Shown here in pieces: positions 3,816-64,000 of a stretch of DNA of 64,000 bases (its first letter is position 1; each line of letters begins with the position of its first letter). The position numbers and the translations under genes are program-made. The notes below the pieces were generated by a model. It did not search any database. It was not told the origin of the DNA and saw only the letters and a list, made by a program, of their open reading frames with translations. Source of the DNA: Candidatus Omnitrophota bacterium (GTDB lineage Bacteria; Omnitrophota; Omnitrophia; Omnitrophales; Aquincolibacteriaceae); NCBI GenBank assembly GCA_030698625.1, contig JAUYMS010000047.1, forward strand, positions 12,210 through 76,209, in the 5' to 3' direction.

Positions 3816-3817
3816 TC

Positions 3818-12027: not shown

Positions 12028-12033
12028 AATTGG

Positions 12034-16276: not shown

Positions 16277-16351
16277 GAGTCCTGCACTTCCTTTTCCGCG
16301 ACCGCAAGCAGCGACAAACCGGCCCGCATGGGTACATGTTTTTCCAAGGCT

Positions 16352-23810: not shown

Positions 23811-23864
23811 GGTTACCCGAGAGGATTCGTATCATCCTCTTCCTTTCATCGCCAGATGATGGCT

Positions 23865-24671: not shown

Positions 24672-24675
24672 TCCC

Positions 24676-26518: not shown

Positions 26519-27725
26519 TGAGTTCGGCCCTCATCCTTTCGCCCAGGAGCAGTTCTTCCGGCTTAATCGTCGCAATCGCGCCGAATATCGGAAGCTCCAG
26601 CAGCTGCCTGGCCTCTTCCACGGTTCGTATTGAATTATTAGACATTTCGATCAAGAAAACGAGTCCGGCGCCGAGACCGAAGCCCAGAACCAAACCCATA
26701 ATTACGATAAGCGGCTTATTCGGCTTATAAGGCTCGAGCGGCAAACGGGCCGGCTCCAACACCTTGAAACGCATCCCCTTGTCGGCATCTTCCAGGGTTT
26801 GCGAGAGTTTCGCCGTTTCGAGACGTTCCAACAGCCGCTGATAAATCCCCGCGTTCACACTGTAGTCGCGATGAAGCTTAGCAAGCTGCTGCTCCTGCAA
26901 GGGAACACTCGAGATGAGTCTTGCATAATCTTCGGGAGTGATTTCTACGCCCAGATCGCGCATTTGATCCATCTGTTCATTACGGCGCAATTCCAGCCTC
27001 TTGATCAGACTGCGCGTCTCGATAACCCGGGGATGCTTCTCGGTGTTATCCACCAGCAGATTGTTGAGCTGAATCTTTAGGTCCACTAACTGCTGGTTCA
27101 TTCCGGTCGCAACCGGCAGTGTGTAATTATAGATTTCTCTGAATTCACGCAGAGTCGTTTCGGATGCCTCGAGCTTTGCGCGATATTCCTCGAGCTGATT
27201 TTCGATAAACTGAATTGCGCTATTGGTCTCCATATTGGTCGAAGTGATACTTCCTTCAACCACGATGTCGGAGAGCGTCTGAACGACTTCCTGCACCTTC
27301 TTCGGGATCTGCCCTTCAAAGGTCAGAAGGACCAGGTCGCCGCCTCTCAAATTGATCGATATCTTATCCCTAAGATTCTTGATTAACTTCTCATAAGCAA
27401 TCGGATTGTTTGCATTGACATCCAATTTCATCTTCTCTGCGAGCAATGTCAGGCGGGGCCACGACATCAGCTGATCCCTCAGGGTGCGCAGGCGCTCGCG
27501 TGAGGCCGGCGTGATGGCTAGGCCTGCGATCAAGGGATTCAGGATTTGTTCGGTCTCAATTAAGAGCACTGTCTGTGCCCGGTAGACCTTCGGCATTGCT
27601 ATCGCAATCGAGGCAGCAATGACCATCGCGGCAAGAGTGGTGATAAGAAGCACGAACTTGTGCCGCATCATCATATAGTAGTATTCGCGTATCCTAAATC
27701 CTTGTGTCATATTTTCTATGGCCAT
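26511..27725 (-). CDS. wzz: Polysaccharide co-polymerase / chain-length determinant (Wzz-like, PCP-2b periplasmic subunit)
   Basis: An N-terminal TM (FVLLITTLAAMVIAASIAIA), a long coiled-coil periplasmic region, and a C-terminal TM (LIVIMGLVLGFGLGAGLVFLIEM). Confidence 0.7.
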   Translation of the reverse strand: MAIENMTQGFRIREYYYMMMRHKFVLLITTLAAMVIAASIAIAMPKVYRAQTVLLIETEQILNPLIAGLAITPASRERLRTLRDQLMSWPRLTLLAEKMKLDVNANNPIAYEKLIKNLRDKISINLRGGDLVLLTFEGQIPKKVQEVVQTLSDIVVEGSITSTNMETNSAIQFIENQLEEYRAKLEASETTLREFREIYNYTLPVATGMNQQLVDLKIQLNNLLVDNTEKHPRVIETRSLIKRLELRRNEQMDQMRDLGVEITPEDYARLISSVPLQEQQLAKLHRDYSVNAGIYQRLLERLETAKLSQTLEDADKGMRFKVLEPARLPLEPYKPNKPLIVIMGLVLGFGLGAGLVFLIEMSNNSIRTVEEARQLLELPIFGAIATIKPEELLLGERMRAELSV

Positions 27726-27909
27726 GAGTTCTAAATTCCTCCGAAAGAGTATTTTTTAAGGCTCGATAACATCCCAGATATTGAGAATCACCCGTACCAC
27801 TAGGCGGCCGCCCATCACAATCAAGGGCCAAAAAAACATCGTGTGCCCCAATGCCCTATTGCTGATTTTTAGCCATCTGTGCTTCTGCATTAAAGACCGG
27901 CCTTTTATT

Positions 27910-28920
27910 TTAGTTATTATTATTACCGGCATTGCGGAAGTAGCCGCCTTCGCTCGCCGCATTTCCCCAGCCTAGCTCATAGACTGAGGCCGCTTGAAAT
28001 AGCGGGCCCGTAATGCGCGAGAACGCGTTGACAAACTTGTCGAAATAGCGCTGTTTCACGAGAATGGTGTCGCCCGGCTCCAAGAAGAAGTCCTCGGCCG
28101 AGTCACCTTTCTCGAGGAGTTTCGAGAGGTCAATTTTTTTCTCCGACGCATTCCCGCTATCGGTAAATTCCGACGGACGAATTACGTAAACCCGCTTCAG
28201 CGAGCCGTCTGCGCGGATGAGCCCTGCAGCCACCACGGCTTCTTTAACCGTGATATTGTCGCCTTTCATCGCGTATTTACCGGGACGGCTGACATACCCA
28301 AATACATAGACAGCCTTGCTGCGGTATTCTGAGATCATGACGGCTACTTCGGGATAACGGACATACTCGCGAAGCCGCTCTACCAATTCGGCTTTTAGCT
28401 GTTCCTTGGTCTTGCCGACTGCCTTCACGTCACCTACGAAGTTGTACTGCACATTGCCCTCCGGATCGATAACGAACCGCCCGGAGAAGTCAGGCTGATT
28501 TCTGACGATGATGGTGACAACGTCGTCTATGCCCAGCGTATAATCGGATCCTTCACCAATGATTTCGATGTATGGAGAATAATGCGAATAGGGAGAAACC
28601 TCGGAGGCGAAGTAAGGATCCTGGCCTTGCTGCGGCGCTCCCGCCTGCCCCATTCCGGGAGATCCCGCATACTGAACGGGAGCCGGGCCCTGAGAGTAAG
28701 GTGAGGTCATAAAGCTAGCATAGGGAGAAAATTGCGTTTCATAATTCGTGCCGTATTGCACTTGCACGGCAGAGGTCTGCCCCGGCTGTGCATTTGATGG
28801 CCCCATATCCTGGCTATTTCCCTGATAGGACAAGGGCGGGGCAAAAGCCTTGGGCGTAAATACGCAGATCGCCAGTGCGATCAAAAGGGCTTGTTTGGTT
28901 AAATGATGATATTTAGTCAT
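27910..28920 (-). CDS. wza: Polysaccharide export protein (Wza-like, Poly_export + SLBB) with N-terminal Q/P/Y/S-rich low-complexity region
   Basis: A signal peptide, then LGIDDVVTIIVRNQPDFSG...YNFVGDVKAVGKTKEQL...VYVFGYVSRPGKY (PES + SLBB pattern). Confidence 0.7.
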   Translation of the reverse strand: MTKYHHLTKQALLIALAICVFTPKAFAPPLSYQGNSQDMGPSNAQPGQTSAVQVQYGTNYETQFSPYASFMTSPYSQGPAPVQYAGSPGMGQAGAPQQGQDPYFASEVSPYSHYSPYIEIIGEGSDYTLGIDDVVTIIVRNQPDFSGRFVIDPEGNVQYNFVGDVKAVGKTKEQLKAELVERLREYVRYPEVAVMISEYRSKAVYVFGYVSRPGKYAMKGDNITVKEAVVAAGLIRADGSLKRVYVIRPSEFTDSGNASEKKIDLSKLLEKGDSAEDFFLEPGDTILVKQRYFDKFVNAFSRITGPLFQAASVYELGWGNAASEGGYFRNAGNNNN

Positions 28921-44732: not shown

Positions 44733-44776
44733 GTGGAAAAAAGAAACCCACCCCGCTTTAGAGCGAGGTGGGTTTC
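44733..44776 (-). terminator. Rho-independent terminator downstream of the pilin gene
   Basis: A perfect 11-bp stem AGAAACCCACC/GGTGGGTTTCT with a 14-nt loop, followed on the minus transcript by a UUUUUU tract. Confidence 0.7.
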
Positions 44777-44802
44777 TGAACACATATGCACTTGACGAAA
44801 CG

Positions 44803-45279
44803 TTACGCGATTGGTGTTCCGTCAGCACAACCGTCTGCATCGCCAGTCGGAGGATCTTCCCCTTCGACCGAACCGACAACAACACCACTCTGATCCACAC
44901 AGTACGTGTTTACAGCTGAGTTGTCATCAAACGGTTCTGCGAATGCCGAATAACTGTTGGGAGTATCTTCACCCCCGCCAGTATAAGTCACGGTAAAACC
45001 ATGCTTCTGATCCTCCGTCCATGACGAATCCAAATAGGACGGATCAGCATCAATTAATGCATCTAAATCTTCGGCATACTCGGGAGGATTCTGCGCAGCC
45101 CGAAAACTCTCGTTGGCTGAGCTGAATGCTCTCAGATCCGTCTTAACCGCACCTTCATTTGCGTTAATTCTGGCGCGAAGAAGATTCGGAATCGCAATCG
45201 CCGCTAACAGACCAATAATAGCTACGACAATCATGATTTCTACTAAGGTGAAACCTTTCTGATTTAGTTTACGATACAT
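44803..45279 (-). CDS. pilA: Type IVa major pilin (prepilin N-terminal cleavage/methylation domain)
   Basis: KGFTLVEIMIVVAIIGLLAAIAIPN; a C-terminal Cys pair (D-region); an AGGAGG RBS upstream. Confidence 0.85.
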   Translation of the reverse strand: MYRKLNQKGFTLVEIMIVVAIIGLLAAIAIPNLLRARINANEGAVKTDLRAFSSANESFRAAQNPPEYAEDLDALIDADPSYLDSSWTEDQKHGFTVTYTGGGEDTPNSYSAFAEPFDDNSAVNTYCVDQSGVVVGSVEGEDPPTGDADGCADGTPIA

Positions 45280-45497: not shown

Positions 45498-46727
45498 CTA
45501 CTTAATGTGCTGCGTGAGGGTCAAAATAGGCAGGAACATAGCGATCACGATACCCCCGATGACCACGCCCAGAAACAGGATAATCAGCGGCTCTATCAGG
45601 GAGGTTAGCCCGCTGACCGCCGCATCTACCTGAGCCTCATAAAAGTCGGCAATCTTCATAAGCATCTCTTCGAGCTCCCCCGTCTCCTCGCCGACGGCGA
45701 TCATACGCACCACCATGGTCGGGAAGGCCTCGTGCTTACCCAGCTGTTTCGAGATGCTTTCCCCCTTCTTGACCGACTCTGTCAGGGAAAGAATGATCTT
45801 TTCGATCTTCCTATTCCCCGCTGTTTTGGACACAATTTCGAGCGCCGAAAGAATCGGGACCCCGCTGCGTACCAGGGTCGCCAGCGTCCTGGCAAATTTA
45901 CTGACAGCAACTTTCTGGAAAAGTTGCCCGAAGATGGGCATTTTCAGCTTAAAGCCATCCCATGCCAGCCGGCCGGGCGGAGTACGAATCACCTGCATAA
46001 ACAGGAAAATAAACCCGCCTATGCCTCCGAGCACAAGAACCCAATTCGCCGCCAAGTAATTACTGAAGTCGATGAGGATGCGGGTCGGCGCGGGCAAAGG
46101 GGCGCCAAGGCCGTCAAAAATTTCGCCGAATTTCGGAATAACGAATGTCATCATACCGAACGTAATAAGGAAGGCGATCGCGGTCACCGAAATCGGGTAC
46201 GTCAAAGCTGATTTCACCTTTTTCTGAAGCACGCTGGTCTTTTCCAGGTAATTGGCAACACGGTCGAGGATCTCTTCGAGGCTGCCGCTGGTTTCACCGG
46301 CGCGGACCATATTGATGTAGAGTTGCGAAAATACCTTGTCATGCCTGCCCATCGCCTCAGAAAAGCTCTTACCCCCGGTGACGTCCTGGTGCATGGCGCG
46401 AAGAATTGTCTTGAAGGAATCCTTATCAACCTGGTCGGCGAGAATGTCGAGGGCCTGGATGAGCGGGATACCGGCTTCCACGAGCGTGGCCATCTGGCGC
46501 GAGAAGACGACAAGATCATCAAGCTTAACTTTACCCCGCTTGCCGGGCTTAGCGCTGCTGCCGCGCCCGACACTGAAGGCCTTGGTATCCTTCAACTCCT
46601 GAATCTTTACAACGATATAACCCTGAGAGCGCAGAGAAGACACAAGCGTCGCCACATCCGGCGCTTCCTGCACTCCGGTTTGATCCTTACCCTTGGAATC
46701 CTTAACCCGATATTCGAACGCTGCCAT
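45498..46727 (-). CDS. pilC: Type IV pilus platform protein PilC (GspF family)
   Basis: Two GspF repeats and three TM segments. Confidence 0.85.
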   Translation of the reverse strand: MAAFEYRVKDSKGKDQTGVQEAPDVATLVSSLRSQGYIVVKIQELKDTKAFSVGRGSSAKPGKRGKVKLDDLVVFSRQMATLVEAGIPLIQALDILADQVDKDSFKTILRAMHQDVTGGKSFSEAMGRHDKVFSQLYINMVRAGETSGSLEEILDRVANYLEKTSVLQKKVKSALTYPISVTAIAFLITFGMMTFVIPKFGEIFDGLGAPLPAPTRILIDFSNYLAANWVLVLGGIGGFIFLFMQVIRTPPGRLAWDGFKLKMPIFGQLFQKVAVSKFARTLATLVRSGVPILSALEIVSKTAGNRKIEKIILSLTESVKKGESISKQLGKHEAFPTMVVRMIAVGEETGELEEMLMKIADFYEAQVDAAVSGLTSLIEPLIILFLGVVIGGIVIAMFLPILTLTQHIK

Positions 46728-46740
46728 TACCCGTTTTCTC

Positions 46741-48450
46741 CTAGTCGCTGCTGACCCTGAGCACTTCTTCCAAAGTAGTGCATCCGGCCTTGAACCTGCC
46801 TAAAGCGTACTCGTAAAGCGTCTCCATACCTTTTTCGACCGCAGCCCGGTGGATCTGATCACTTGAAAGCTTTTCGATAATCATTTCGCGTATCTGATTA
46901 TCGACTTCCATGAGCTCAATCACGGCCATGCGCCCGTAATATCCCGTGTGGTTACATTTCACACAGCCCTTTCCTTTATAGGGCGTAAACCCTTTCATAT
47001 CCTCAGCCGTTAAATTGCATCGCCGTAACACTTCCGCGGGAACTTCATGCGGGGCTTTACAATACTGGCACACCCGCCGCACAAGACGTTGAGCCGCAAC
47101 GCAAATGACCGATGAAGCGATCAAGAACGGCTCCACCCCCATGTCGATAAGACGCGTGACCGCGCCGGCGGCGCTGTTCGTATGAAGAGTGCTGAACACA
47201 AGATGCCCGGTCAACGCCGCCTTGACCGCAATATCGGCCGTTTCCGAATCGCGGATTTCACCGACGAGGACGATATCGGGACTCTGACGCAGAAGAGCAC
47301 GTAGGCCGCTTGCGAATGTCAAACCGATCTGAGCATGGGTCTGAGTCTGAGTTATCCCTTCCACCTGGTACTCCACGGGGTCTTCAATCGTCATGATATT
47401 TCTATCAATCGTATTGAGTGTATTCAATATGGTATAGAGAGTCGTCGACTTTCCGCTGCCGGTCGGACCCGTAACCAGAATCATGCCGTAGGGGTGCTTC
47501 ACGGCCCGAGCCAAAATATTGGTGGGCCCTTCGGTCAAACCAAGTTTGTCCAATCCGGACTTCATGCTTGCTCTGTCAAGAACACGCATCACGATCTTTT
47601 CCCCAAAATAGATAGGAAGCATTGAGACACGGAAATCGATTTCGCGGTTTAGAAGTTTCACACGGAAGCGTCCGTCTTGAGGAACACGCTTCTCCGTGAT
47701 ATCCAATTGCGACATGATCTTGATTCTCGCGACCACCGCACTGTACATATCGCGAGCATGACTGAAGGCGTCTTTGAGCGCCCCGTCGATACGATAACGG
47801 ATGCGGAATTCTTTTTCGTAGGGTTCAAAGTGAATGTCGGAGGCTCTCATCCGGATCGCTTCTTCGATGATAAGATTCACCATTCGAATGACGGGCGCAT
47901 CGTCCAAGCTATGCTTCTTGGTGTCGTCATCCCCTTCTTTGGCACCCCTATCAGCGACGACTTCCAGGTCGTCCTCACCGATGCCCTCGATAATCTCATG
48001 AAGACTGCCGCCCTGTGAGTAGTAGTGCTCGACAGCGGCGCTGATCGCTTTCGGCGTCGCTAGGATCAAACTGATATCACAGTTCGTCAGACCGCGAAGA
48101 TCGTCCTGAAGCATTAGATCCAGAGGCCGGCTCGTTGCTACGGTAAGGAGATTCTTGATGCGCGACACGGGCATGGCGCGGTACCTGTCTGCCAGTTTCT
48201 TAGGGATAAGATCAAGGGTATCCTTGGGAATACGATATGCCGAGAGATTGAACATAGGTATTTCCAAATGGTCACTCAGAAAATGAGTCATGTCTTCTTC
48301 GTCGATGAGCCCCTTTTCAACAACAAGCTCAAAGACATCTTTTTTGTCTTTCTTTGCCAACTTCAAGACATTCTGAAATTCCTTGGCGTCGACCTTGCCG
48401 CTATCGATCAACATCTCAGCGAGTTGTGTCTTTGATATTTGCGAAATCAT
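46741..48450 (-). CDS. pilB: PilB/GspE-family secretion ATPase (copy 1, adjacent to pilC)
   Basis: Walker A is LVTGPTGSGKSTTLY; Asp box; His box; a tetracysteine CQYC...CVKC. Has an N-terminal T2SSE_N-like domain. Confidence 0.85.
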   Translation of the reverse strand: MISQISKTQLAEMLIDSGKVDAKEFQNVLKLAKKDKKDVFELVVEKGLIDEEDMTHFLSDHLEIPMFNLSAYRIPKDTLDLIPKKLADRYRAMPVSRIKNLLTVATSRPLDLMLQDDLRGLTNCDISLILATPKAISAAVEHYYSQGGSLHEIIEGIGEDDLEVVADRGAKEGDDDTKKHSLDDAPVIRMVNLIIEEAIRMRASDIHFEPYEKEFRIRYRIDGALKDAFSHARDMYSAVVARIKIMSQLDITEKRVPQDGRFRVKLLNREIDFRVSMLPIYFGEKIVMRVLDRASMKSGLDKLGLTEGPTNILARAVKHPYGMILVTGPTGSGKSTTLYTILNTLNTIDRNIMTIEDPVEYQVEGITQTQTHAQIGLTFASGLRALLRQSPDIVLVGEIRDSETADIAVKAALTGHLVFSTLHTNSAAGAVTRLIDMGVEPFLIASSVICVAAQRLVRRVCQYCKAPHEVPAEVLRRCNLTAEDMKGFTPYKGKGCVKCNHTGYYGRMAVIELMEVDNQIREMIIEKLSSDQIHRAAVEKGMETLYEYALGRFKAGCTTLEEVLRVSSD

Positions 48451-50204
48451 GCCGCTTTCTTCTCCTCGCTCTTCTGGTCATTTGTCGACACGCGGTAGAT
48501 TTCCTCCACAGTTGTCTCACCTTCCAGCGCTTTGGCCACGGCGCTTTGCCTCAGAGTCGTCATTCCTTGCCGAACAGCGATCGCCTTCAAGTCATCTGAA
48601 GAGGCGCCTTGCATGATCCCCGCCATGACGGTAGGCGTCATTTCCATAATCTCGGTAATCACCCGCCGGCCCTGATACCCCGACTGGCGGCAGCGCACAC
48701 ATCCCTTAGCCTTATAAAACTGATGTGTTTTAGCGGGATCCAGCCCAAGATCTTTGACGAGGTCAGCTTCTGCTTCATAGGTATAGCGACACCTCTGGCA
48801 TATGCGCCTCACCAAGCGTTGGGCGGATACCATAATCACCGTCGACGCGATCAAGAAGGGCTCAAGCCCCATGTTGACCATACGGGTAATCGAACTCGGC
48901 GCGTCATTGGTGTGCAGTGTACTCAGCACCAGATGACCGGTCATGGCAGCCTTAACGGCAATGTCCAAAGTGTCCGTGTCACGAATTTCGCCGATCAGCA
49001 CGATATCGGGGTCCTGGCGCAGAATCGAGCGCAGTGCCGCGGGAAAGGTTAGTCCGATCGCCTCTTTCACATTCACCTGATTGATCCCGTGCACTTGATA
49101 TTCCACGGGTTCTTCCACCGTCGTGATGTTGACTTCCGGTTTATCCAGAAATTTCAACACAGAGTACAGCGTCGTGCTCTTTCCGCTACCCGTCGGGCCC
49201 GTCACCAGAATCATGCCGTGCGGTTTGCGCGAGCAATCCTTAATGATCTGCTGTTCCCGGTCACTGAAACCTAGCTTGGTTATGTCGTGACCCTGATTCG
49301 AGGTGTCCAGGATACGCAAACACACCTTTTCCCCGAAACTCGACGGCAAGATACTCACGCGCAAATCGACACTTCGCTTTTCTACCCGCACTTTAATGCG
49401 GCCGTCCTGCGGCACCCGATGTTCGGCGATATTGAGATCGCTCATGATCTTCACACGCGAAACAATGGCCGGCCCCATTCCGACAGGCGCTTTTATGAGC
49501 TCTTCGAGCATCCCGTCTACACGCACCCTCACTCTGACAAAGTTTTCCCATGGCTCGATGAAAATATCGCTCGCTTTCCTCTTGATGCCCTCAAGCAAGA
49601 CCATATTCACAATCTTGATGGTCGGCGACTCATGGGCCACCTTCGCCAGTTCCGCTTCCTCCGCGGCGGATTCCCCCGGATCTTCCATATCAATCATCTT
49701 GACCAAATCGTCGAGTTCTCCCCCGCGATCTTCGGTCTCGATATCCGGTGCATCGGTTTTCTTAAGGCTATAGTACTTTTCGATAAGCTTTCTCAGCGTG
49801 GCATAGCCGGCCACGCAGGCGCGAATCCGCAGGCCGGTAATAGCGTGGATCTCATCGATGGCTGCGAGGTTGGTCGGGTTGGCAAAAGCTACGGTCAGTG
49901 TCTTCTCATGCTGGCTGATCGCGAGAGCCGTGTATTTCTCCGCGACCTCCTTCGGGAAGCTGGCAATAACTGCATCGTCAATGATAAAGACGGTGGGATT
50001 CGTGAGGGTGTACCCAAACTCTTTGCTCAAGACACGGGCAAGTTTTTTCTCGTCAAACTTGCCCTTCTCAAAAACGGCATCGATGAGCGATTTCTTACCG
50101 TGTTCGGCTTCCATGAGCGCTTCGTGGAGGTCTTCGGCGCTCATGACCTTCTCGCCGATCAGCGCTTTCTGCAAATCACCGTAATAGGAATCTTTAGAAC
50201 CCAC
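48447..50204 (-). CDS. PilB/GspE-family secretion ATPase (copy 2, tandem paralog)
   Basis: Walker A is LVTGPTGSGKSTTLY and the tetracysteine is CQRC...CVRC. Overlaps copy 1 by ATGA. Confidence 0.85.
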   Translation of the reverse strand: MGSKDSYYGDLQKALIGEKVMSAEDLHEALMEAEHGKKSLIDAVFEKGKFDEKKLARVLSKEFGYTLTNPTVFIIDDAVIASFPKEVAEKYTALAISQHEKTLTVAFANPTNLAAIDEIHAITGLRIRACVAGYATLRKLIEKYYSLKKTDAPDIETEDRGGELDDLVKMIDMEDPGESAAEEAELAKVAHESPTIKIVNMVLLEGIKRKASDIFIEPWENFVRVRVRVDGMLEELIKAPVGMGPAIVSRVKIMSDLNIAEHRVPQDGRIKVRVEKRSVDLRVSILPSSFGEKVCLRILDTSNQGHDITKLGFSDREQQIIKDCSRKPHGMILVTGPTGSGKSTTLYSVLKFLDKPEVNITTVEEPVEYQVHGINQVNVKEAIGLTFPAALRSILRQDPDIVLIGEIRDTDTLDIAVKAAMTGHLVLSTLHTNDAPSSITRMVNMGLEPFLIASTVIMVSAQRLVRRICQRCRYTYEAEADLVKDLGLDPAKTHQFYKAKGCVRCRQSGYQGRRVITEIMEMTPTVMAGIMQGASSDDLKAIAVRQGMTTLRQSAVAKALEGETTVEEIYRVSTNDQKSEEKKAA

Positions 50205-50208
50205 AACT

Positions 50209-50688
50209 TCAACCCGCTTTTTTTAGTTTCTTCGTTTTTGATTGAGATGCGTTAGCAAGATCTATGAGTTCTAGAATTTCTCCGCTCGTCGACATAAATA
50301 CCTGCGGCTTCTTTTTCGTTTCCTGACGCGCCCGCTCAACACCCGGACAATGCAACGGATCTGAAACCGCTAAATAGATTCGCTGCTCGTCAACATCGAA
50401 GGCCACCATGGCGTGCTCCCGGCAAAAATCGGCATCGAATAGACGGACGGCGTCCATGTTAATCGAGTAATTTTGTAGGGCGATGAACGGAACCTTGAGC
50501 TGCTTACCAAGGGCTCCGATCAATTGTTCCTCCGAAATATGGCCCTGCTGCAGGAGAATGCGGCCGAGCAGACCGCCTTCCCCCTCCTGAACGAGGAGAG
50601 CTTCCTGGATATTCTCGTTCGTAAGCAGACCATCCTCGAGAAGGATCTCGCCCAAGCGTTTGCTTGAACTTTCCCCCATAATAAACAA
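50209..50688 (-). CDS. Stand-alone MshEN/T2SSE_N domain protein (predicted c-di-GMP receptor)
   Basis: Two tandem 24-aa motifs: RLGEILLEDGLLTNENIQEALLVQ and LLGRILLQQGHISEEQLIGALGKQ. Both fit RLGxxLLxxGLLxxxxLxxxLxxQ. Confidence 0.7.
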   Translation of the reverse strand: MFIMGESSSKRLGEILLEDGLLTNENIQEALLVQEGEGGLLGRILLQQGHISEEQLIGALGKQLKVPFIALQNYSINMDAVRLFDADFCREHAMVAFDVDEQRIYLAVSDPLHCPGVERARQETKKKPQVFMSTSGEILELIDLANASQSKTKKLKKAG

Positions 50689-50838
50689 GTATAGCCAGAG
50701 AGATTTGCATTTACAAGTTATGCCGTGACTCTTATTTAATTGAATTGTTATATATTGATATCAGATGATACTGTAACCATAAATATGTTAAAAAACATTA
50801 CTAACAATAATTTCAAACCAATCAGCAGGAGAGCCAGA

Positions 50839-55680: not shown

Positions 55681-58600
55681 TTATGCCGCAGCGGCGGCGA
55701 ATTCGGCGAAGCGCTCGGCATCCAGCATAGCCGAGAGGAAGGCGTCCAGGCCTATAAGGGCCGCTGCGTCGCGAGCATAAAAGCGATCATCTGCGCCCTG
55801 GAGGAGGAATCGAGCTGCTTCATCAACCTCGGTGGCATTCAACAGAAGCGCCGAAAAGGCCCCCGCCACAAAAGAACCCAGGTGGCGGCGGATCTGAGTC
55901 GCGTCTATCGGCAACGCCTCACCGCTCGGGAGGCGGTTAGTCACCACACTCACATGGGGCGGTATCTGCGACTCAAGCCCCCCCTCAAAAGAGGCGGTTG
56001 CGGCGAAAGCCACCTGGCGCCCTGAGAGCAGGGCCGCACCCAATCGCTCGAAATCGGTACGCCCGGTGAGGCGTATCCGCGGTCGCAGGCTTCTTAGCTC
56101 GGAGCGAAATCCTGCCAACTTTTCATCCAGAATACGCGCAAACAGCCTGCGAAAGTCTCGAATATTATCTCCATCGACAAGAACGACAACCCCGTGCTCA
56201 CCCGATTCGTTTCGGATAAGCGATCCGATCACTGCGTCCACATAGATTTCCATTTCGTCCGCGGTAAAATCCTGCGGTACCACCGACACAACTGTAAGCG
56301 GAAGATCGCTGTGTCGAATCGCATCACTCACGAGGACTTCGTTCGGGCTCAAGGCGCGGACTACCGCGGCTGGTAATATTTCTGCGACAATCGCACTGCG
56401 AACCTCCGGGCCGACATTCAAACCGGCAAGATTCTGCAGAAATCTGGCGACACTCGCACGCGTCTCAAATCTCACTTCGACACTTTTGTTCGCTTCGTTC
56501 TGCTCACGCAATTCCGATCTCTGAAACGCGAAGTGAACCTCCGCCCCGTCTCTGGCCCTCTCCTGTTGGACATGGTCTCGCAGGGCCTGCTCCGAGGCGG
56601 CCGTATCTCCGCGCCTCCCGGCAATGGCGCGCAAGGACTCCTGCGTTTCCGAACTGAGGAGCAGTCGCGAAAAGGCCGTCCGAAGCGACTCGGCGTCACT
56701 AGGCCCCGACGCCAAAAAGCGTTTGAGCGTGACTTCAAAAATGGCCTCACCGCCATTTTCACCTCGCGCAAAGAGCCCGAAGGCCGCGAGCACCTCTCCG
56801 TCCCCATGGCTCAAATTCCAGTCCCGTGAAAACTGAAAACGATGCCGCTCGCCAGCGCTGAGGCGGCTTTCCAACGCGCCGACCAATCCGGTTAAGAAAT
56901 CGTCAAAAGCAGCAAGGACAGCGAATTTCCCGCCGTTGACCTGAGTCACCTTGGCAAGTTGCCGCGCCACATCCGCCGCTTCTGCCCCTCTATCAGAATC
57001 CTTCAATTCCCGCTTGAAATCCCTAAGAGATTTGCCGTCCCTGACCGGAATTCCGATGATTAGCTCCTCCGCCAGGGCCTCATTGCCGGATTGTCCGTAC
57101 TTTGAAAAATCCACGGCTGAGGGATTCGCGCGCTCACCTGTGAGCATTAGAAGGTCGGATTCGACTTCATCTGCAAAGACATCCTTCCCCAGGTTCGCCT
57201 CCACGTATTGCTGAGCGGTTAGTTCCAGAGACGGGAGTGCTTTCTTGCCGCCGATCTCCAGATCGCCCCGGGCATAAAGTGTCGCAACCGCGTGATACAC
57301 ATTGTAGGCCGCAATCCGCGCGAAAGAACTGCGGTCCTTAGCCGCAAAGTTTTCGGCATAGACGGCTTCGCGAAGCCGGGGATCCGCATCAAATGTCTGC
57401 TTCACCCAAGCCGGCGTATTCCCGAAGAACAGTTCCACTTTCTCGTCAAAGATACTGCGCCGATTTCCGTTCTCATCCGGCGTTTTCACGTGAAGCATCA
57501 GCGCCGCAAAGAGTTTCGCGTCACTCCCGTACGCCTCCCACCGCTCGGCGGCAATAGCTTCAGCCCTGCCGCTGTTGATATGATCCGCATCACTGAGGAC
57601 CTGTGGATCATTAAGCGGAAGCTCCGCACTCGACTGAAAGAACCTGGGGCTACCTAATAATCGCTCATAAGTTGGCAACAGCCCCGGCGCGTTGAAGTCA
57701 CCGCGGCGGTAAGCATCCGCTGCGGCACTCAAGGTCCCTACAGCCACCTCCACCCTGTGTTCTTCCGGATAGAGAAGTGCCGTACGGGCCTCCGTCGGTT
57801 CTGTCCCCGCCACGAAATCATAATTGATTCCGTTCGCACGCACCCACTCCACGAAAACGGTTTCCGGAACATAGGCAAACAATTCACGCTTTCCCGGATC
57901 TTGGATATACAGTCTATTGATCGTTACGCGGGAAATACCATACTCGCCCTGCCTAACGTTCAGGGCGCCGTAACTCGCAAGATCTACCTGCGGGTCGTGA
58001 ATCGCAACATTTAGGGGAGCGCCATCCGCATCCACAAAGATAATTTCGACTTCCTCCGGACTCACGGCACCCACGTATTTCATGAGATTGTAGCGAATAC
58101 TGCGGTCTTCCAAATCGGCACGGCGTCGGCCTTCAGGGGTGTTCTCAACGTATTTGATGCGCTCGATCAACGTCCCCTTGTATTTGTTCTTAGGATCCTC
58201 ATATACCTTAAACGACAGAACACGCGGGACAACACGTCCAACGGGATCCCGCTCGGCAAGAATATGAAGTTCGTACACCTTTCCATTAATTCCCGTGCGG
58301 ACAGTCACTTCATCGGTGTCTTCATAGATCGTGTAATTCCCGACCCCAAAGAACCCGGAACTCTTGGTCTCATCCATCAATCCCTGGCTTTCCAACCAAT
58401 CATGAATCTGGGAAGCCGGCGTCGACGGATCCTCGAGCATCCGAACGATCTCTGCCGTCACCTCATTCAACCGGTCTTCCTCCAACTTACCGACGAGGGC
58501 TTTGATGATTTTCCGGGCGATGTCCTCAGCCGGCCCGCCCCGGTCAACCAGAGTTTGGATGAATTCCAGCGGTGACTTCGTGGTTGCCTGCGGCGGAATA

Positions 58601-61600
58601 AATTTCTTGATCAAAATTTCAGGCTCCATCCCGTGAGCATCTTCAGTGGTGGTTTTGTGGAGGAGCTTTCCGTCTGAGGTCCGCCGGTGAAGAAAACTGC
58701 GCACCCTCACCTGCCGCTTCCCCCCGAATCGCTTGAATTCCACCTCCGGGTCGACGTCGGGATTTCTCGTAATATCACGCGCGTTCTGAATGATCTCGCG
58801 TAACATAACCATACCGGGCTGGCGTTGTCTTTCAATGGTGGTAATGACCTCGTCGCGGTAAGCCGGATGCGAGGAGCTCTTCCACGCGTTCCACAGCGCT
58901 ATCGTGACCCTCTGACGGGGGAATTTCTCCAGACCGGAACGCGTCTGAAGAATATCCACCAATTCACTCAATCCGTAATCTTCCTCGCCGCTCAAATCAG
59001 GGACCCGGTCTACCCAGCCCTGAACATCATCCCTCAATCTGCCGTCGCTAAAATTGATCCCCAAATCGATCGCGCCCTGTTTATCGCTTAAAGCGACCGC
59101 TCCGGTCGCAAAGTTCGCCAGAACAGTTGCCGGCTCCGTTTCATTGCGAAAGGCATTTAGAAACGCGGCTGCGACGCGCGGCGCATTGAAGGTGCCCGTT
59201 CTGTCCTGCTCCCCAAGTATATTCACGAGCACGTCAAGACCCAGGTCGTCGCGATTCACCCAAGCTTCAAAAGCAGCCGATACGCCCGCCCGGACCTTGG
59301 CGTCGTTCAGATCGTAGCCAAATGCGATAGCGCCTTGCTCATCACGAAGCGCCACACGCCCCAACACATAGGGTGCGAGGGATCGTTTGAAGGACCGGAT
59401 CATTCCGCTTTGAATATCGGGGCGCCCGTTCACATAAACATTTCTTTCCCGCAGATTTTCAGCCGCATCCACCAGCCACGCCAATTCAAAATCATTTCGT
59501 CCGAGCCAAGTGCTGACATCCCCTTCCGCCAAATCACCTTCGAGGACAAGGTCGTCATCCTGAGCCAAGTTGTGCTCAGCCTCTTCTTTAAGCACTTCCT
59601 TGCCGGCAAGGTACTCCGCCCAAGTCCTGCCGGGAAACGGGAAGATGCTGTCAACATTGGGTTGTTTCGGGTCATTAAAACGCCACAGCTCCAGCAGGCG
59701 AGATCCGTATCCTTCCGGGCTTTCTACCAGGTAGGCATAAAGCTCGTTGGTTGTGTTGAGGTTTCCATTCCTCCGCAGATCATCGGCCACCAGTCCAAAA
59801 AGCCGCTCCAGAAAATCGTCCGCATTCTCAAAGGGCCTCGTCCCTTTGTCGTGGAAAAACGCCAGATACGGACCGCTGCGAGTTAGAACCGCATTAGCGA
59901 GCGTAAAAACCGGGGTTAATTGCGCGAGCAGCTTGAGATCCTGCGCAAGTTCCAGGACTTCCTCACCCGCCTTACGCGTCGCGGGACTGAGCGACGCTTG
60001 CGGGCCGAGATAGAGATACAAGGGCGAAAAGGTTGTCGGCGCTTCAACGATATGCTTGTCGCGCTTCTCGTCCGTCGGCTTGGCAATTTCGTAAGACGCG
60101 CTCTTGCCGGCTTCCGCAAACTTCTCGGCAACGCTGCCCTCAACCTTGGCTCCAATCCGAACACTCGCCGCGTCTTTAAGACCGGCCGCATTCATCTGCG
60201 GTAATGTGTTTTCATCCACCTTGTATCGGAATTCTCCCACTCCGTTTGCGGCTTCGTTGCCCGCTGCCGGCCGCCACATGCGGAACAGAGCGCCCAACAC
60301 CGCGAGCTCGGCATCGTCCCCCTGACTCTGATGGTATTGGTAAAGATGCCGGAGCAAAGATTGATTGTCGTAGTTGAGCACATGATTCAAGTAGTAGAAG
60401 TCGACCGCGGCGCCATTGGCGCGAATCGCTTTGAGGTTCCCCTTATAGAGATTCCAGGCAAGCCCGTTGATGATCTTTCTGGATTTCGACTTTTTCGGGG
60501 CGCCCAGGGAGTCCAGCAGCTTTTTGATCCTTTTCAAGTTTCTGCGATAACCGAAAAACGCGGCAATCCCCTGCCCGACATGAAGGAATGCCCGCACCAC
60601 GAACATGATCAGCCCGCCTATCAGCGTAAACAGAACGAAGCGGATCGGAGCAACCACCAAAACGCCAAAGACAATCCCGATGCGGTTAGCAATAAACCTC
60701 GGTCGCGTATACGGATTCTCTGCGAGATTTGCCTCCCAGCTGAACCGGAACCACGTCGACGGGTTTTCGCCCTTGGCGTCGGAATCCCGGCCGTAAACGT
60801 CCACTTGCCCCTTATTACCGCTCAACCACGCATCCACGGCCGCAGCTTCGGCAACGTCGCCGGAATCAGGGACACCGATCAGGGCCTCAAAATACGTGCT
60901 TCTCTCCGCATTCAACCAACCATTCTCATCAGGAACGATCTCAACAATCGCGAACTGGAAGCCCAAGTAACCCGCGACGATGCCGCGCAGTAATGCCGCT
61001 GCTCGCGGCGTAGCGCGAATCAACCGGCCGCGCCCCGCAATATCGCCGGCCGCCTGTGCCCAGCTCGCATGTCCTTCCCTGCGCGCGAGATCATCTTTTC
61101 CGTCCGCAGCGTTAACCTCGAGGATTATGTGCCTTCGCGTAAAATCATCGAGCACGCGTAATTTCTCGGCAGGCGACGCATCGCGATAAGCGTCCAGTTC
61201 GCTGCCAAAAAATTGCGCCAGCCCGGCGCGCTCGTTTTCAGGCAATGGACTCCCTGCAATGTGGACCCCAACGTCGCTCGGCGCATAATTCCAGAGGTGA
61301 TAGCTGATTTCGACAAGATCGCCCTTATTAATGCCTTTCCCGACCACCACATGACTGTTTTCGACTTTGGATTCGATGGGAACCCTGATCTCGTTGCCGT
61401 CTCGTTGCACCGCATAACCGTCCTTGTCAGTCTTGATCAAAGTTACGCTGACCCCGCCATGCGCATCATCATCGGCGATAGTCCCACGCGGAATATGGTA
61501 CAGAGCAATACGGGGGGTTAGAATGTAGTCCCTAAAAACCACGTTGACAGGCTTTGACGAAGACCGTTTTATTTCCTCTGATAATCTGCTTTTCGGGGGA

Positions 61601-64000
61601 ACCCCCTGCCAGTGCCAATTCCCGTCTTCATCCAGGTTGCTGTAGACCGCACGAATTAAGGACTCGGTTTTAGGCAAATCGGCAACACTTCCGTACGCTG
61701 GGTAAGTCGAAGAAATTTCTGCCGCGTCACGCGGACCGCTCGTGATCGTCTTCGGCAGGCTCTTCCGGAGCGGTGAGCTATGCCCCGGACCATTTTCTAG
61801 AAGTCTGCGCGCCGCCGCGTCGTCGCGATTCAGCTTTGCCCGCGAGAACCAACCGGCCACGCGTACCATCCACGACCAAATAGCTGAAGCAATGCCCGTC
61901 ACAAATTCATAGAGCCCAACAAAAATCGACCCGTAAAATGCCAGGGCCTCCCAGGCCAGATGCAATGCATAGCGGATGCGGCCGTTAAGATTCTCCTTCA
62001 AGTTTTTGTCCCCTTCAAAGAGAAACCATTGCACCCGGGAATTACCGCCGGGCGCAGTCTGAGAACCGTAACGAATCACACCGTTGTCCTCCGTCGCAAA
62101 ATCATTTGCCTCATCCACGAGGGTCTGGTCCTGGCTCCCGTAGGGCACGCCGATTAACGCCTCGTGATGCACTTGGTTATATGCATTGAGCTCACCCTTC
62201 TCTCCGGTTTCCGTACTGGCGACCAGGGCAACGTGCAGCCCGAGATAGCCGGCAAGAAGGGCGCGAATCAGTGCTACACCGCTTTCATCGGCACGCACAT
62301 GGCCGTGGCGGCTGATGATGTATTCGATCTTTCTCGCCCACGAAACTTGGTCAGCCGAAAACTTCAACAAGTCGCGCCTATTTTCTGACGCGTTATCGAT
62401 AATCACGTATCGCGATGTGAACTCATTGATAAAGCGCAATTTTTCGGCCGGCGTCGCATCGCGATAAGCGTCGAGGCCCAAGCGCTGTCCAAAATAGTCT
62501 TTCATGGCTTCAGCTTCATTTGCAGGAATGCCGAGCGTCGGTAAATTCAGCTCGACCTGATCTTCGCTGTATCGCCACACTTCATAGCGAATAAAAACCG
62601 TCTGCCCGACTAGTTCGGCAGGCAGCGTTACCTTTCCGTTCTGTACGCCGACCCATGCAACCCATTCCCCTTTATGATCTCCGCTATCGGTGGTAATCTG
62701 CTTGAATATTTCGACCTGGTCCGGGTAATAACCTTCCTTTCCGTCGGCTTTTTTCTTTTTGCCGCCTATTTCGCCCCGGGCATAGGTATACAGCTCGATC
62801 CCGCGCGTGGCGGGAATTCCTTCAATCACGAATTGATGACGGTTTTCCGCGGGAGGCCCGACCCGCGGAAAGACTAGCGCCGTGCTCGGGACTTTCTGCC
62901 ATACTCCTATTTGGTTAAGCGACGCGTAGTAACCGCGAATAACGCGCTCACCTTTTGGGTGATTCGAAATACTGCCGTAAAGTCCGAAGATCCCCTTTGA
63001 CCTGTCGTGTTCGTTCTTGTCCGCACTCACATGAAGCGTCGGCAGCGCTTGCTCAAGAGGCGGAGCGTGGGGTGATTGCGTTGTGCCGCGCCGTTTCTTA
63101 TTGTCCGCTTCGTTGTATTCCTTTCTGCCTGCCCTGAATTTGAACAGTGAAACAATAAATGCAATGAGTCCGATTATCCCAAAGAGACCCGTAAAAAAGT
63201 ACGCGGCCACCACGTCACCGGTATCAAGCGGTGATGTCTGCACGCGAAGGGGCGCCGTCGTTTCGATGGACTTCCAGTACTTATTGCCCGTACCGTCCCA
63301 ATCCCCGAACGCCGCCAGCTTCGCATGGCCATCCTTATTGGCATCAAAGTGTCCCTCCGCATCCGGAGACACAACCGCCTGGTAGGCGATGGGAATGCCC
63401 GCACGCTGCAGGAATACTCCGGCGGCCGCACATGAAGAATTACATATAAACAAGGCATCTCCTTCTTCGGCGCCGGTATAAGCCTTATTCCGCTCGATGG
63501 CGGCAGCAATAGCCTTGGCCACCGGCATGTAGCCATCCAAGCTAAATGCCCCCTGCCGTGGAGTCGCCGTGAGGTCATAGGCCGCGTGATCGGCAAGCCA
63601 CTGCAGAGTAATCTCCAGGGCCCTTTGGTCCGTGGCCCCTCTGAGCTGCCGAGCAAGATCCGGGAAGTACTTGTCGACAGCGGCATTTTGCACTCGGATA
63701 TTTTCGGGATCATTTTCAGCCAGATCGATGACGATGTCCGTCGGATCGTAAAAATTCGATTCCGTTTCGATTCGGATATGCCCCTTATGACTTAGAGTGA
63801 TCTCATCACCATTACGGGCCCAGTCTTGGCCCTCAACAAGCTCGGTGCCCCGTTCCTGCCCCGTGCTATCGGATTCGAATACGCGGACTCCTGTGATAAT
63901 GCCGGAGTGCGGGTTGTAAAGCGGAAAGGTTTGTCCGTCACGAACTTTCCCGAAAAATTCCGCTTGTATCGGTTCGGAGTTCAGCCGCGAAGCACCGGCT
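55681..64000 (-). CDS. Giant multi-module membrane-associated protein of unknown function (more than 2,770 aa; 5' end lies beyond the window)
   Basis: The frame is open with no stop from 55,681 to the window end. The ORF-track start at 63,693 is only the first GTG after the window edge. At least 3 TM helices, each ending a tandem ~425-aa module. Hsp90/sacsin/MORC-like GHKL motifs lie at ~58.3-58.8 kb. Confidence 0.75.
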   Translation of the reverse strand, partial: AGASRLNSEPIQAEFFGKVRDGQTFPLYNPHSGIITGVRVFESDSTGQERGTELVEGQDWARNGDEITLSHKGHIRIETESNFYDPTDIVIDLAENDPENIRVQNAAVDKYFPDLARQLRGATDQRALEITLQWLADHAAYDLTATPRQGAFSLDGYMPVAKAIAAAIERNKAYTGAEEGDALFICNSSCAAAGVFLQRAGIPIAYQAVVSPDAEGHFDANKDGHAKLAAFGDWDGTGNKYWKSIETTAPLRVQTSPLDTGDVVAAYFFTGLFGIIGLIAFIVSLFKFRAGRKEYNEADNKKRRGTTQSPHAPPLEQALPTLHVSADKNEHDRSKGIFGLYGSISNHPKGERVIRGYYASLNQIGVWQKVPSTALVFPRVGPPAENRHQFVIEGIPATRGIELYTYARGEIGGKKKKADGKEGYYPDQVEIFKQITTDSGDHKGEWVAWVGVQNGKVTLPAELVGQTVFIRYEVWRYSEDQVELNLPTLGIPANEAEAMKDYFGQRLGLDAYRDATPAEKLRFINEFTSRYVIIDNASENRRDLLKFSADQVSWARKIEYIISRHGHVRADESGVALIRALLAGYLGLHVALVASTETGEKGELNAYNQVHHEALIGVPYGSQDQTLVDEANDFATEDNGVIRYGSQTAPGGNSRVQWFLFEGDKNLKENLNGRIRYALHLAWEALAFYGSIFVGLYEFVTGIASAIWSWMVRVAGWFSRAKLNRDDAAARRLLENGPGHSSPLRKSLPKTITSGPRDAAEISSTYPAYGSVADLPKTESLIRAVYSNLDEDGNWHWQGVPPKSRLSEEIKRSSSKPVNVVFRDYILTPRIALYHIPRGTIADDDAHGGVSVTLIKTDKDGYAVQRDGNEIRVPIESKVENSHVVVGKGINKGDLVEISYHLWNYAPSDVGVHIAGSPLPENERAGLAQFFGSELDAYRDASPAEKLRVLDDFTRRHIILEVNAADGKDDLARREGHASWAQAAGDIAGRGRLIRATPRAAALLRGIVAGYLGFQFAIVEIVPDENGWLNAERSTYFEALIGVPDSGDVAEAAAVDAWLSGNKGQVDVYGRDSDAKGENPSTWFRFSWEANLAENPYTRPRFIANRIGIVFGVLVVAPIRFVLFTLIGGLIMFVVRAFLHVGQGIAAFFGYRRNLKRIKKLLDSLGAPKKSKSRKIINGLAWNLYKGNLKAIRANGAAVDFYYLNHVLNYDNQSLLRHLYQYHQSQGDDAELAVLGALFRMWRPAAGNEAANGVGEFRYKVDENTLPQMNAAGLKDAASVRIGAKVEGSVAEKFAEAGKSASYEIAKPTDEKRDKHIVEAPTTFSPLYLYLGPQASLSPATRKAGEEVLELAQDLKLLAQLTPVFTLANAVLTRSGPYLAFFHDKGTRPFENADDFLERLFGLVADDLRRNGNLNTTNELYAYLVESPEGYGSRLLELWRFNDPKQPNVDSIFPFPGRTWAEYLAGKEVLKEEAEHNLAQDDDLVLEGDLAEGDVSTWLGRNDFELAWLVDAAENLRERNVYVNGRPDIQSGMIRSFKRSLAPYVLGRVALRDEQGAIAFGYDLNDAKVRAGVSAAFEAWVNRDDLGLDVLVNILGEQDRTGTFNAPRVAAAFLNAFRNETEPATVLANFATGAVALSDKQGAIDLGINFSDGRLRDDVQGWVDRVPDLSGEEDYGLSELVDILQTRSGLEKFPRQRVTIALWNAWKSSSHPAYRDEVITTIERQRQPGMVMLREIIQNARDITRNPDVDPEVEFKRFGGKRQVRVRSFLHRRTSDGKLLHKTTTEDAHGMEPEILIKKFIPPQATTKSPLEFIQTLVDRGGPAEDIARKIIKALVGKLEEDRLNEVTAEIVRMLEDPSTPASQIHDWLESQGLMDETKSSGFFGVGNYTIYEDTDEVTVRTGINGKVYELHILAERDPVGRVVPRVLSFKVYEDPKNKYKGTLIERIKYVENTPEGRRRADLEDRSIRYNLMKYVGAVSPEEVEIIFVDADGAPLNVAIHDPQVDLASYGALNVRQGEYGISRVTINRLYIQDPGKRELFAYVPETVFVEWVRANGINYDFVAGTEPTEARTALLYPEEHRVEVAVGTLSAAADAYRRGDFNAPGLLPTYERLLGSPRFFQSSAELPLNDPQVLSDADHINSGRAEAIAAERWEAYGSDAKLFAALMLHVKTPDENGNRRSIFDEKVELFFGNTPAWVKQTFDADPRLREAVYAENFAAKDRSSFARIAAYNVYHAVATLYARGDLEIGGKKALPSLELTAQQYVEANLGKDVFADEVESDLLMLTGERANPSAVDFSKYGQSGNEALAEELIIGIPVRDGKSLRDFKRELKDSDRGAEAADVARQLAKVTQVNGGKFAVLAAFDDFLTGLVGALESRLSAGERHRFQFSRDWNLSHGDGEVLAAFGLFARGENGGEAIFEVTLKRFLASGPSDAESLRTAFSRLLLSSETQESLRAIAGRRGDTAASEQALRDHVQQERARDGAEVHFAFQRSELREQNEANKSVEVRFETRASVARFLQNLAGLNVGPEVRSAIVAEILPAAVVRALSPNEVLVSDAIRHSDLPLTVVSVVPQDFTADEMEIYVDAVIGSLIRNESGEHGVVVLVDGDNIRDFRRLFARILDEKLAGFRSELRSLRPRIRLTGRTDFERLGAALLSGRQVAFAATASFEGGLESQIPPHVSVVTNRLPSGEALPIDATQIRRHLGSFVAGAFSALLLNATEVDEAARFLLQGADDRFYARDAAALIGLDAFLSAMLDAERFAEFAAAAA
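60480..62900 (-). repeat. Intragenic tandem duplication (period 1,278 bp) inside the giant ORF
   Basis: The 15-mer atcgcgataagcgtc occurs at 61180..61194 and again at 62458..62472, with about 40 nt of flanking near-identity. Protein blocks LDAYRDATPAEKLRF and LDAYRDASPAEKLRV; each copy ends in a TM helix. Confidence 0.8.

Follow-up and report, generated by a model that had tools for sequence, protein, structure and literature searches.

How does a second messenger act on a motor that lacks the residues for sensing it? Two routes by which cyclic di-GMP (c-di-GMP) reaches type IV pili are known: in cis, through an MshEN domain fused to the motor, and in trans, through the unrelated FimX and PilZ proteins. 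A locus from the Omnitrophota, an uncultured phylum of very small cells some of whose members are reported to be predatory, hints at a third arrangement, fixed across the phylum, in which a putative MshEN sensor is encoded by a gene of its own next to two motors without key sensor residues. The locus lies in a 64,000-nucleotide (nt) stretch of contig JAUYMS010000047.1 from a Candidatus Omnitrophota bacterium, here called the window. A small gene on its reverse strand precedes the genes of two PilB-like extension ATPases, PilB1 and PilB2, and since these are followed in turn by pilC, a pilin gene and pilMNOPQ, it heads a complete type IVa pilus cluster (Table 1). The original prediction, made from the sequence alone, described this as a split MshE that delivers c-di-GMP input to pilus extension in trans.

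The first question is where the small gene begins and ends. An open reading frame (ORF) is present at 50209..50688(-), with 159 amino acids (aa) from a mechanical TTG start at 50688 and a TGA stop codon at 50211..50209. The true start is most likely the ATG at 50679, which gives a product of 156 aa. It is preferred because the homologues all begin with M-x5-(K/R)-R-L-G, and the protein read from this ATG aligns with that beginning. In the public record of the contig, a metagenome-assembled genome (MAG) of Candidatus Omnitrophota, the gene appears as protein P0001, a 'hypothetical protein' of 148 aa whose deposited start is the Leu codon of RLG (50655..50679(-)), so that the first motif residue, Arg, is lost. 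This is of practical relevance for annotation, as the deposited start hides the motif Arg of a protein that carries no functional label. The GTG start of pilB1 at 50204 follows the stop codon after a gap of 4 nt, with a change of reading frame. The claim of a separate small gene 4 nt ahead of two PilB-like ATPases is thereby borne out in all its elements: ORF, stop and GTG start were all found.

What does the gene encode? The HMMER comparison proposed with the original prediction gave scores above cutoff for two models. Pfam MshEN (PF05157) matches residues 65-147 with 50.8 bits (gathering score 23.1), and residues 11-63 score 52.8 bits (curated cutoff 38) on NCBIfam NF053729, 'cyclic di-GMP-binding domain, MshE-related', spanning that model end to end (positions 1-53). 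Pfam detects no T2SSE ATPase domain in the 156-aa protein, and neither Pfam nor NCBIfam finds a PilZ or degenerate GGDEF-EAL domain. Among solved structures, phmmer matches Thermus thermophilus PilF with its three GSPII domains, Vibrio cholerae MshE (5HTL) and several PilB proteins.

An AlphaFold (AF2) model based on an alignment of five family members has a mean predicted local distance difference test score (pLDDT) of 85.5 and a predicted template modelling score (pTM) of 0.73. It contains the two parts of the MshEN receptor fold, a four-helix bundle (residues 9-61) and a C-terminal alpha/beta subdomain (strands 91-96, 100-105 and 124-129), followed by a C-terminal helix (132-154). Foldseek ranks c-di-GMP-bound MshEN 5HTL at the top (E = 1e-10, template modelling (TM) scores 0.69/0.76), in a group that also includes the c-di-GMP-bound PilF GSPII-B structure 8PDK and its mutants; the best matches cover a TM range of 0.69-0.77. 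The next match is the Xanthomonas PilB N-domain in its complex with PilZ (7LKO), and weak matches are seen to 2BH1 and 4PHT. The Asp of an 'SDP' in the C-terminal subdomain corresponds to D108 of V. cholerae MshE (VcMshE). By sequence and by model, the product is thus a complete MshEN domain and a clear member of the family.

Does this domain have what is needed to hold the ligand? MshEN domains bind c-di-GMP through two 24-residue motifs placed 5 residues apart, for which the extended consensus reads (R/K/L)LGxx(L/V/I)(L/V/I)xxG(L/V/I)(L/V/I)xxxxLxxxLxxQ (PMC11731258). The original prediction saw a match at every constrained position of both motifs, which was overstated: 20 of the 22 positions agree with the extended consensus and 19 with the 2016 version. 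Motif I deviates only at position 17, an Ile in place of the consensus Leu, while in motif II the opening Arg is replaced by Leu and position 11 is occupied by His. Its placement of motif I was exact; motif II, which it had put at ~50,497..50,568, lies 3 nt away. All four Gly and both Gln of the consensus are present, the 5-residue spacing is exact, and the GG that precedes motif II is at least 90% conserved among 76 stand-alone sequences from the survey described below.

Mutational studies of other systems show which of these positions matter. The G11L variant of MshEN has no detectable c-di-GMP binding and G40I binds 72-fold more weakly (PMC5013675). In PilF GSPII-A, an Ala (A41) at motif position 3 obstructs the ligand pocket (PMC12002112). 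It is because of these results that we count the Gly at position 3 as critical. Single or double Gln-to-Glu changes in PilF likewise reduced or knocked out binding (PMC11731258). The Leu that opens motif II equals L196 of PilF GSPII-B, and both read LLGRIL. As GSPII-B binds c-di-GMP with a dissociation constant (KD) of 6 nM, which led to the extension of the consensus to (R/K/L)LG, this Leu is not a defect; a hydrophobic first motif residue was even proposed in the PilF study as a predictor of high affinity (PMC11731258).

The two ATPases next door present a different picture. Judged by their sequences, both genes, which overlap by 4 nt, encode full-length PilB-like proteins. Pfam T2SSE scores 438.5 bits in PilB1 and 465.6 bits in PilB2, TIGR02538 aligns over model positions 2-563 in both at 632.8 and 649.7 bits, scores that fall slightly short of the 675.65 set for equivalogs, and Walker A, Walker B, His box and tetra-Cys motif were all found in either protein. 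For both, the PilB model gives a higher score than the TfpB model does. Each also has a Pfam MshEN match of its own (59.7 bits in PilB1, 72 bits in PilB2), which is why neither can be said to have lost an N-domain. 'Split MshE' is therefore not an apt name, given that both ATPases keep a complete N-domain of MshEN fold. The accompanying claim that these N-domains are degenerate holds for the window: they retain 11/22 and 12/22 motif positions and reach 14.7 and 20.4 bits on NF053729 (cutoff 38). The stand-alone protein is accordingly best described as an extra, predictedly ligand-competent MshEN copy beside ATPases that retain MshEN-fold N-domains.

Is this layout peculiar to one genome? A word-indexed homologue search returned 7 matches only, and the family emerged from a genome scan together with an exhaustive profile search. 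Scanning the family profile over one genome per GTDB species yielded 80 loci, nearly all from Omnitrophota MAGs, which were surveyed by ORF calling and phmmer. This survey of genomes for other split arrangements had been suggested with the original prediction, and it found a stand-alone orthologue of about 146-200 aa in 72/80 loci. The gene is directly followed by two PilB genes in 61/80 loci, and in another nine the locus is cut off by the contig end. Of the 63 loci with a stand-alone gene whose contigs extend far enough to reveal what lies downstream, 61 have pilB1 and pilB2 adjacent to it. A PilT-like ATPase of 353 aa lies directly upstream in 29/80 loci, giving the order pilT-mshEN-pilB1-pilB2; the window's own clade has no adjacent pilT. 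An independent metagenome lineage, 41% identical, shows the order pilT-mshEN-pilB-pilB-pilC-pilins.

Across the phylum, the stand-alone orthologues are 27-50% identical to the window protein and have a conserved C-terminus of their own. Relative to the small gene, pilB1 occurs in all three possible frames (27/20/18), and the distance from the small-gene stop to the pilB1 start varies from -10 to +339 nt (median 11). Recurrence of the family and its gene order in dozens of species is far beyond chance. With a conserved layout, all three frames and variable spacers, these are therefore separate genes of an operon and not a recurring sequencing error. As far as genome sequences can tell, the conserved layout is a real and presumably regulatory design of the Omnitrophota. 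The two ATPases also form clean orthologous groups, the nearest cross-species neighbour belonging to the same class in 66/66 and 61/61 cases, while PilB1 and PilB2 of one genome are about 44% identical. Their duplication therefore predates the sampled radiation. Walker A and the catalytic Glu of Walker B are kept in both.

Several loci show variations on this layout. A second stand-alone MshEN gene directly after pilB2 was found in L072 (10016..10474), L082 (10015..10473) and L084 (10036..10527), all on the forward strand, so that the pilB1-pilB2 pair has a small MshEN gene at either end. In L037 (246..806(+)) and L070 (1710..2240(+)) a stand-alone MshEN gene is followed by a convergent gene of ~525 aa, with no PilB; these may be paralogues used in another context. 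PilB1 of L023 (6461..8185(+)) is broken into ORFs of 145 and 412 aa, a probable frameshift or assembly error and an example of what a true break looks like versus the conserved stand-alone gene. Finally, the His box is non-canonical, with no TGH pattern, in 42 of 60 full-length PilB2 orthologues (loci L022-L087). Those inspected read TGQ, the first His being replaced by Gln, which may point to specialised catalysis in PilB2. TGH is retained in PilB2 of the window's clade and almost always in PilB1.

With the survey at hand, we can ask whether the division of residues seen in the window is general. For this, the 53-residue motif was aligned with 76 stand-alone proteins and with the N-termini of 66 PilB1 and 61 PilB2 proteins. 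The Gly at position 3 of motif I is present in 98% of the stand-alone proteins and in 0% of both PilB1, which has Q, C, K or T instead, and PilB2. Its counterpart in motif II is kept in 100% of the stand-alone proteins, 9% of PilB1 (Ser in 54%) and 0% of PilB2. The Gln at position 24 is invariant in both motifs of the stand-alone family (100%), and occurs in 50% of PilB1 and 32% of PilB2 for motif I and in 1% and 8%, respectively, for motif II. The Leu that begins motif II, found in 94% of the stand-alone proteins, is seen in 0% of either ATPase. All of the 76 stand-alone orthologues pass NF053729 at the cutoff-equivalent E-value, the best at 1.9e-33. The idea that the c-di-GMP residues reside on the small protein and are lost in the ATPases thus holds phylum-wide for Gly and Gln; it holds less well by model score, since PilBs of other clades often pass NF053729. 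These PilBs are called degenerate because of specific substitutions, namely the replaced glycines, and not because of their score, while those of the window are degenerate by both criteria.

The loci without a stand-alone gene complete this picture. There are 8 among the 80, mostly from Bacillota, Actinomycetota, Hydrogenedentota and Planctomycetota MAGs, and in them the motif is fused to the ATPase or to another protein. In most of them the PilB itself has both glycines in its N-terminus. Together with the Omnitrophota pattern, this means that a competent motif occurs either in cis or in trans.

Fused proteins from elsewhere hint at a partner. The exhaustive profile search returned about 36,000 representative proteins with the domain. 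Among the best 150 of these are roughly 30 single-domain proteins of 146-190 aa and many with multiple MshEN domains, and closer inspection identified seven as (MshEN)2-T2SSE ATPases. Two of these, P0038 and P0064, have sequence motifs that indicate a competent first MshEN domain and a degenerate one proximal to the ATPase. The small protein plus PilB1 looks, in sequence terms, like this architecture split at the first domain boundary. Such fusions, for example Cthe_1107 (PMC5013675, Supplementary Table 4), P0038 and P0064, consist of parts equivalent to the stand-alone protein and PilB1, and therefore provide Rosetta-stone evidence that the two act together; unlike them, the Omnitrophota version is no single polypeptide and includes a second ATPase.

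How does this compare with characterised systems? V. cholerae MshE (5HTL; PF05157; NF053729) shares the four-helix bundle with alpha/beta subdomain, the two 24-residue motifs with their 5-residue linker and the ligand-contacting R/L, G, L and Q, as well as the association with a type IV pilus extension ATPase. There, however, the domain is fused to the ATPase as its sole N-domain, whereas in Omnitrophota it is a separate 156-aa protein and the ATPases have a degenerate copy of their own. T. thermophilus PilF (GSPII-A/B/C; 8PDK, 9G1W, 6F8L) also has several MshEN-type domains per pilus motor, some of which bind c-di-GMP while others do not, and it shares LLGRIL in motif II of GSPII-B. All its domains are in one chain with one ATPase, while in Omnitrophota the competent domain is detached and serves beside two ATPase paralogues.

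MshEN-type proteins without an ATPase are likewise on record. Pseudomonas aeruginosa PA3740 is among the proteins with experimentally determined c-di-GMP binding status and affects swarming (PMC5013675). Its T2SSE_N1 part is highly divergent, Cyanothece cce_1044 is an (MshEN_N)2 protein without T2SSE_N1, and neither is described as operonic with pilB. The small protein fits the PA3740-like architecture of MshEN_N and a T2SSE_N1 part with no ATPase, which is a likeness of architecture. In the FimX-PilZ-PilB system of Xanthomonas and Pseudomonas, separate proteins bring c-di-GMP input to a non-binding PilB N-domain by docking there. The resemblance is functional only: there, a degenerate GGDEF-EAL protein does the sensing and PilZ serves as its adaptor, both of unrelated folds and encoded outside the pilB operon. 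Acinetobacter baylyi PilB/TfpB provides the precedent for two distinct extension-type ATPases in one pilus system, but in Omnitrophota both paralogues score better as PilB than as TfpB and their genes are adjacent and overlapping.

What, then, does the small protein do? The reality of the gene, its domain identity and fold, the phylum-wide synteny and the complementary motif residues are established here, and beyond them we infer ligand binding, a protein partner and a direction of effect. We consider it probable, with moderate confidence, that the small protein, produced alongside both motors, serves as a c-di-GMP receptor and brings input in trans by docking on a motor or on the platform. 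On this reading the gene is co-transcribed with pilB1 and pilB2 and probably translationally coupled to them; we count the 4-nt gap, the 4-nt overlap of pilB1 and pilB2 and the succession of pilC, pilin and pilMNOPQ as operon evidence. In the proposed mechanism, the small protein would first bind one c-di-GMP in its N-terminal four-helix bundle, probably tightly, given that its motif II shares the initial Leu of PilF GSPII-B. In its bound state it would then dock on the PilB1/PilB2 motor or on the PilM/PilC platform and, once docked, gate pilus extension in trans, just as the outermost MshEN does in cis in (MshEN)2-ATPases. If MshE, Myxococcus xanthus PilB and PilF are a guide, c-di-GMP likely promotes extension. 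Activation is the likelier direction because fused MshEN domains, where tested, favour extension or pilus-dependent behaviour. A more tentative extension of the proposal, possible at best, is that this is a two-paralogue motor whose c-di-GMP sensor has been detached as a freely exchangeable subunit.

A number of observations weigh against a receptor acting on the motors in trans. The stand-alone gene is away from PilB in 2/80 loci (L037, L070). In other clades, 36/66 PilB1 and 18/61 PilB2 N-domains also reach the NF053729 threshold; these could keep some binding, which would lessen the need for the small protein. Within the stand-alone family itself, only half of the members (50%) have Gly at position 10 of motif I. 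A perfect motif consensus does not guarantee c-di-GMP binding either: PilF GSPII-A restored to consensus was still non-binding, owing to its N-cap and inter-subdomain contacts. Also, a source of the ligand is not evident nearby. A motif search of all large ORFs found no credible diguanylate cyclase or phosphodiesterase in the 64-kb window, and no ORF of the 87 related loci contains GG[DE]EF. An annotated HAMP-'GGDEF' neighbour in L001 reads DNDEF at its active site. The genomic surroundings thus give no support for a cyclase, and the use of c-di-GMP in Omnitrophota is known from the literature only, through GGDEF/PilZ genes and a ComFB-CheR protein. GGDEF domains have been reported for the phylum in giant proteins, with PilZ genes following them (preprint 10.1101/2023.11.21.568195).

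The alternative that survives best, which we nevertheless regard as rather unlikely, accepts c-di-GMP binding and places the target elsewhere than PilB. The small protein would mimic an N-domain and compete for PilM/PilC as a brake, or it would control PilT; it could set the balance of extension and retraction either way. PilB N-domains are indeed thought to contact the stator or platform (PMC11656802), and the C-terminal subdomain belongs to the T2SSE_N1 type, whose binding partner in type II secretion is GspL, with 2BH1 and 4PHT as weak fold matches. The 29 loci in which the PilT-like ATPase directly precedes the gene would fit as well, but no pilT stands beside it in the window's own clade, and in the Rosetta-stone fusions the domain's partner is the extension ATPase rather than PilT. 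Moreover, those c-di-GMP-binding MshEN domains on pilus ATPases that have been tested promote extension (PMC11656802).

Could the small protein be a motor subunit that binds no ligand at all, a 'landing pad' like PilF GSPII-A or a chaperone-like stabiliser like Xanthomonas PilZ, with its motif conserved for folding reasons? We hold this to be improbable. GSPII-A is an instructive precedent, as it has a near-consensus motif I, does not bind and is not rescued by restoring the consensus (PMC12002112). The good fold match to the Xanthomonas PilB N-domain/PilZ complex 7LKO and the lack of a cyclase in the window or the locus flanks agree with such a role. The residues kept at 98-100%, however, are precisely the ligand-contacting Gly and Gln of both motifs, and every one of the 76 orthologues passes the c-di-GMP-motif model. 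The fold does not require these residues, because the sister PilB N-domains share it yet have lost them.

Quite improbable is a role in buffering c-di-GMP generally, or as a receptor whose target has nothing to do with pili, so that the operon position would be incidental: the two orthologues away from pil genes and the ATPase-less PA3740, for which no connection with a pil operon is stated, would suit it, but the adjacency to pilB1-pilB2 persists in 61/63 assessable loci even though the orthologues are only ~30% identical to the window protein. The weakest alternative, raised together with the original prediction, is that the ORF is the N-terminal fragment of a once-fused (MshEN)2-PilB, broken at 50204..50211 by frameshift or assembly error; fused (MshEN)2-T2SSE proteins do exist, the gap is just 4 nt with a change of frame, and the source is a MAG, but the split in 61/80 species loci (at least 61 independent species-level genomes), in three frames and with variable spacers, the small protein's own conserved C-terminus and its (near-)invariant ligand-pocket residues at 27-50% identity, and a PilB1 that is complete by itself, aligning from position 2 of the PilB model, rule out a frameshift or pseudogene origin and leave it scarcely credible.

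The receptor acting in trans on the pilus motors thus remains the preferred reading, and its gene can be placed in the wider window.

Table 1 Features of the pilus locus, in window coordinates
Feature	Coordinates	Strand	Basis or remark
Promoter-like site TTGTAA-17-TATACT in 150-nt AT-rich upstream spacer	50688..50716	-	Weak consensus match
Stand-alone MshEN gene	50209..50679	-	ORF list, Pfam, NCBIfam, AlphaFold, Foldseek
c-di-GMP motif I, RLGEILLEDGLLTNENIQEALLVQ	50587..50658	-	10/11 constrained positions; aligns with VcMshE residues 9-32
Linker EGEGG, five residues	50572..50586	-	Spacing 24+5+24 = 53 residues, as in MshEN (PMC5013675)
c-di-GMP motif II, LLGRILLQQGHISEEQLIGALGKQ, residues 40-63	50500..50571	-	10/11 positions on extended consensus
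MshEN_C (T2SSE_N1-like) alpha/beta subdomain, then C-terminal helix and Lys-rich tail	50248..50496	-	Pfam MshEN, AF2 model
Spacer between stand-alone gene and pilB1, 4 nt	50205..50208	-	Frames of the two genes differ
PilB1, PilB-like extension ATPase, 585 aa	48447..50204	-	Degenerate N-terminal MshEN domain, motif region ~50046..50177
PilB2, second PilB-like ATPase, 569 aa	46741..48450	-	Degenerate N-terminal MshEN domain, motif region ~48268..48426
PilC platform protein	45498..46727	-	Pfam T2SSF 225.6 bits
Type IV pilin	44803..45279	-	Pfam N_methyl motif
Strong GC-rich hairpin, 16-bp stem and T-run, directly after pilin gene	44742..44777	-	Likely terminator or attenuator
pilM	43623-44681	-	Pfam PilM_2
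pilN-like	43048-43653	-	Assigned by position and size only
pilO	42374-43051	-	Pfam PilO
pilP-like	42003-42377	-	Assigned by position and size only
pilQ secretin	40400-42070	-	Pfam Secretin/STN/Secretin_N

Promoter-like sites in the region are no more numerous than expected from shuffled sequence. The hairpin after the pilin gene is likely a terminator or attenuator that separates pilA from pilMNOPQ. Between 40000 and 56000 there is no Rfam match at E <= 0.1, and a c-di-GMP riboswitch near the operon is thus rejected. The small protein itself ends in a Lys-rich tail, SKTKKLKKAG (50212..50260(-)). Its closest homologues end in (K/R)KAG or KKKD, while a more distant clade is without such an ending; the tail may be a clade-specific contact or membrane-proximal tail. 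The HAMP-'GGDEF' protein of L001 (5323..6744(+)) lies two genes upstream of the pilT-mshEN-pilB-pilB cluster. With DNDEF in place of GGDEF it is probably inactive as a cyclase and might be a receptor or scaffold.

Farther away, 55681..63999(-) holds a giant ORF without any Pfam match that runs past the window end; it spans at least 2772 aa, or 2670 aa if read from its first GTG. It shares its strand with the pilus operon, which lies ~5 kb downstream of it, and giant genes close to secretion-like loci have been reported in Omnitrophota (preprint 10.1101/2023.11.21.568195). At the other end, 1..28000(-) is a long run of same-strand genes whose N-terminal sequences resemble a polysaccharide/glycosyltransferase cluster; a Walker-A ORF of 280 aa (25676..26518) lies inside it.

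How much of this is new? ATPase-less MshEN receptors (PA3740), trans-acting PilB regulators (FimX/PilZ) and dual extension ATPases (Acinetobacter) are all known already. In the open-access text of the 2016 MshEN paper, beyond PA3740/cce_1044, of the 2024 review on PilB cofactors and of the Omnitrophota papers, we found no stand-alone MshEN cofactor of PilB. What appears to be new, and was not found described, is an MshEN-only gene within the pilB operon, throughout a phylum, together with two PilB paralogues that systematically lack the pocket residues.

For the Omnitrophota, this adds a candidate c-di-GMP receptor linked to the pilus. If the proposal is true, a single high-affinity receptor could gate two motors or choose between them, or it could tip the balance between extension and retraction. 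It would also represent a modular 'plug-in sensor', a design as yet undescribed among the ATPases of type IV pili and type II secretion. Specialists may not be startled by this. The locus is nonetheless a natural system for asking what MshEN does to the PilB hexamer, for which separable parts are easier to handle than fused ones, and thus a clean and testable natural experiment on the effect of MshEN on a pilus motor.

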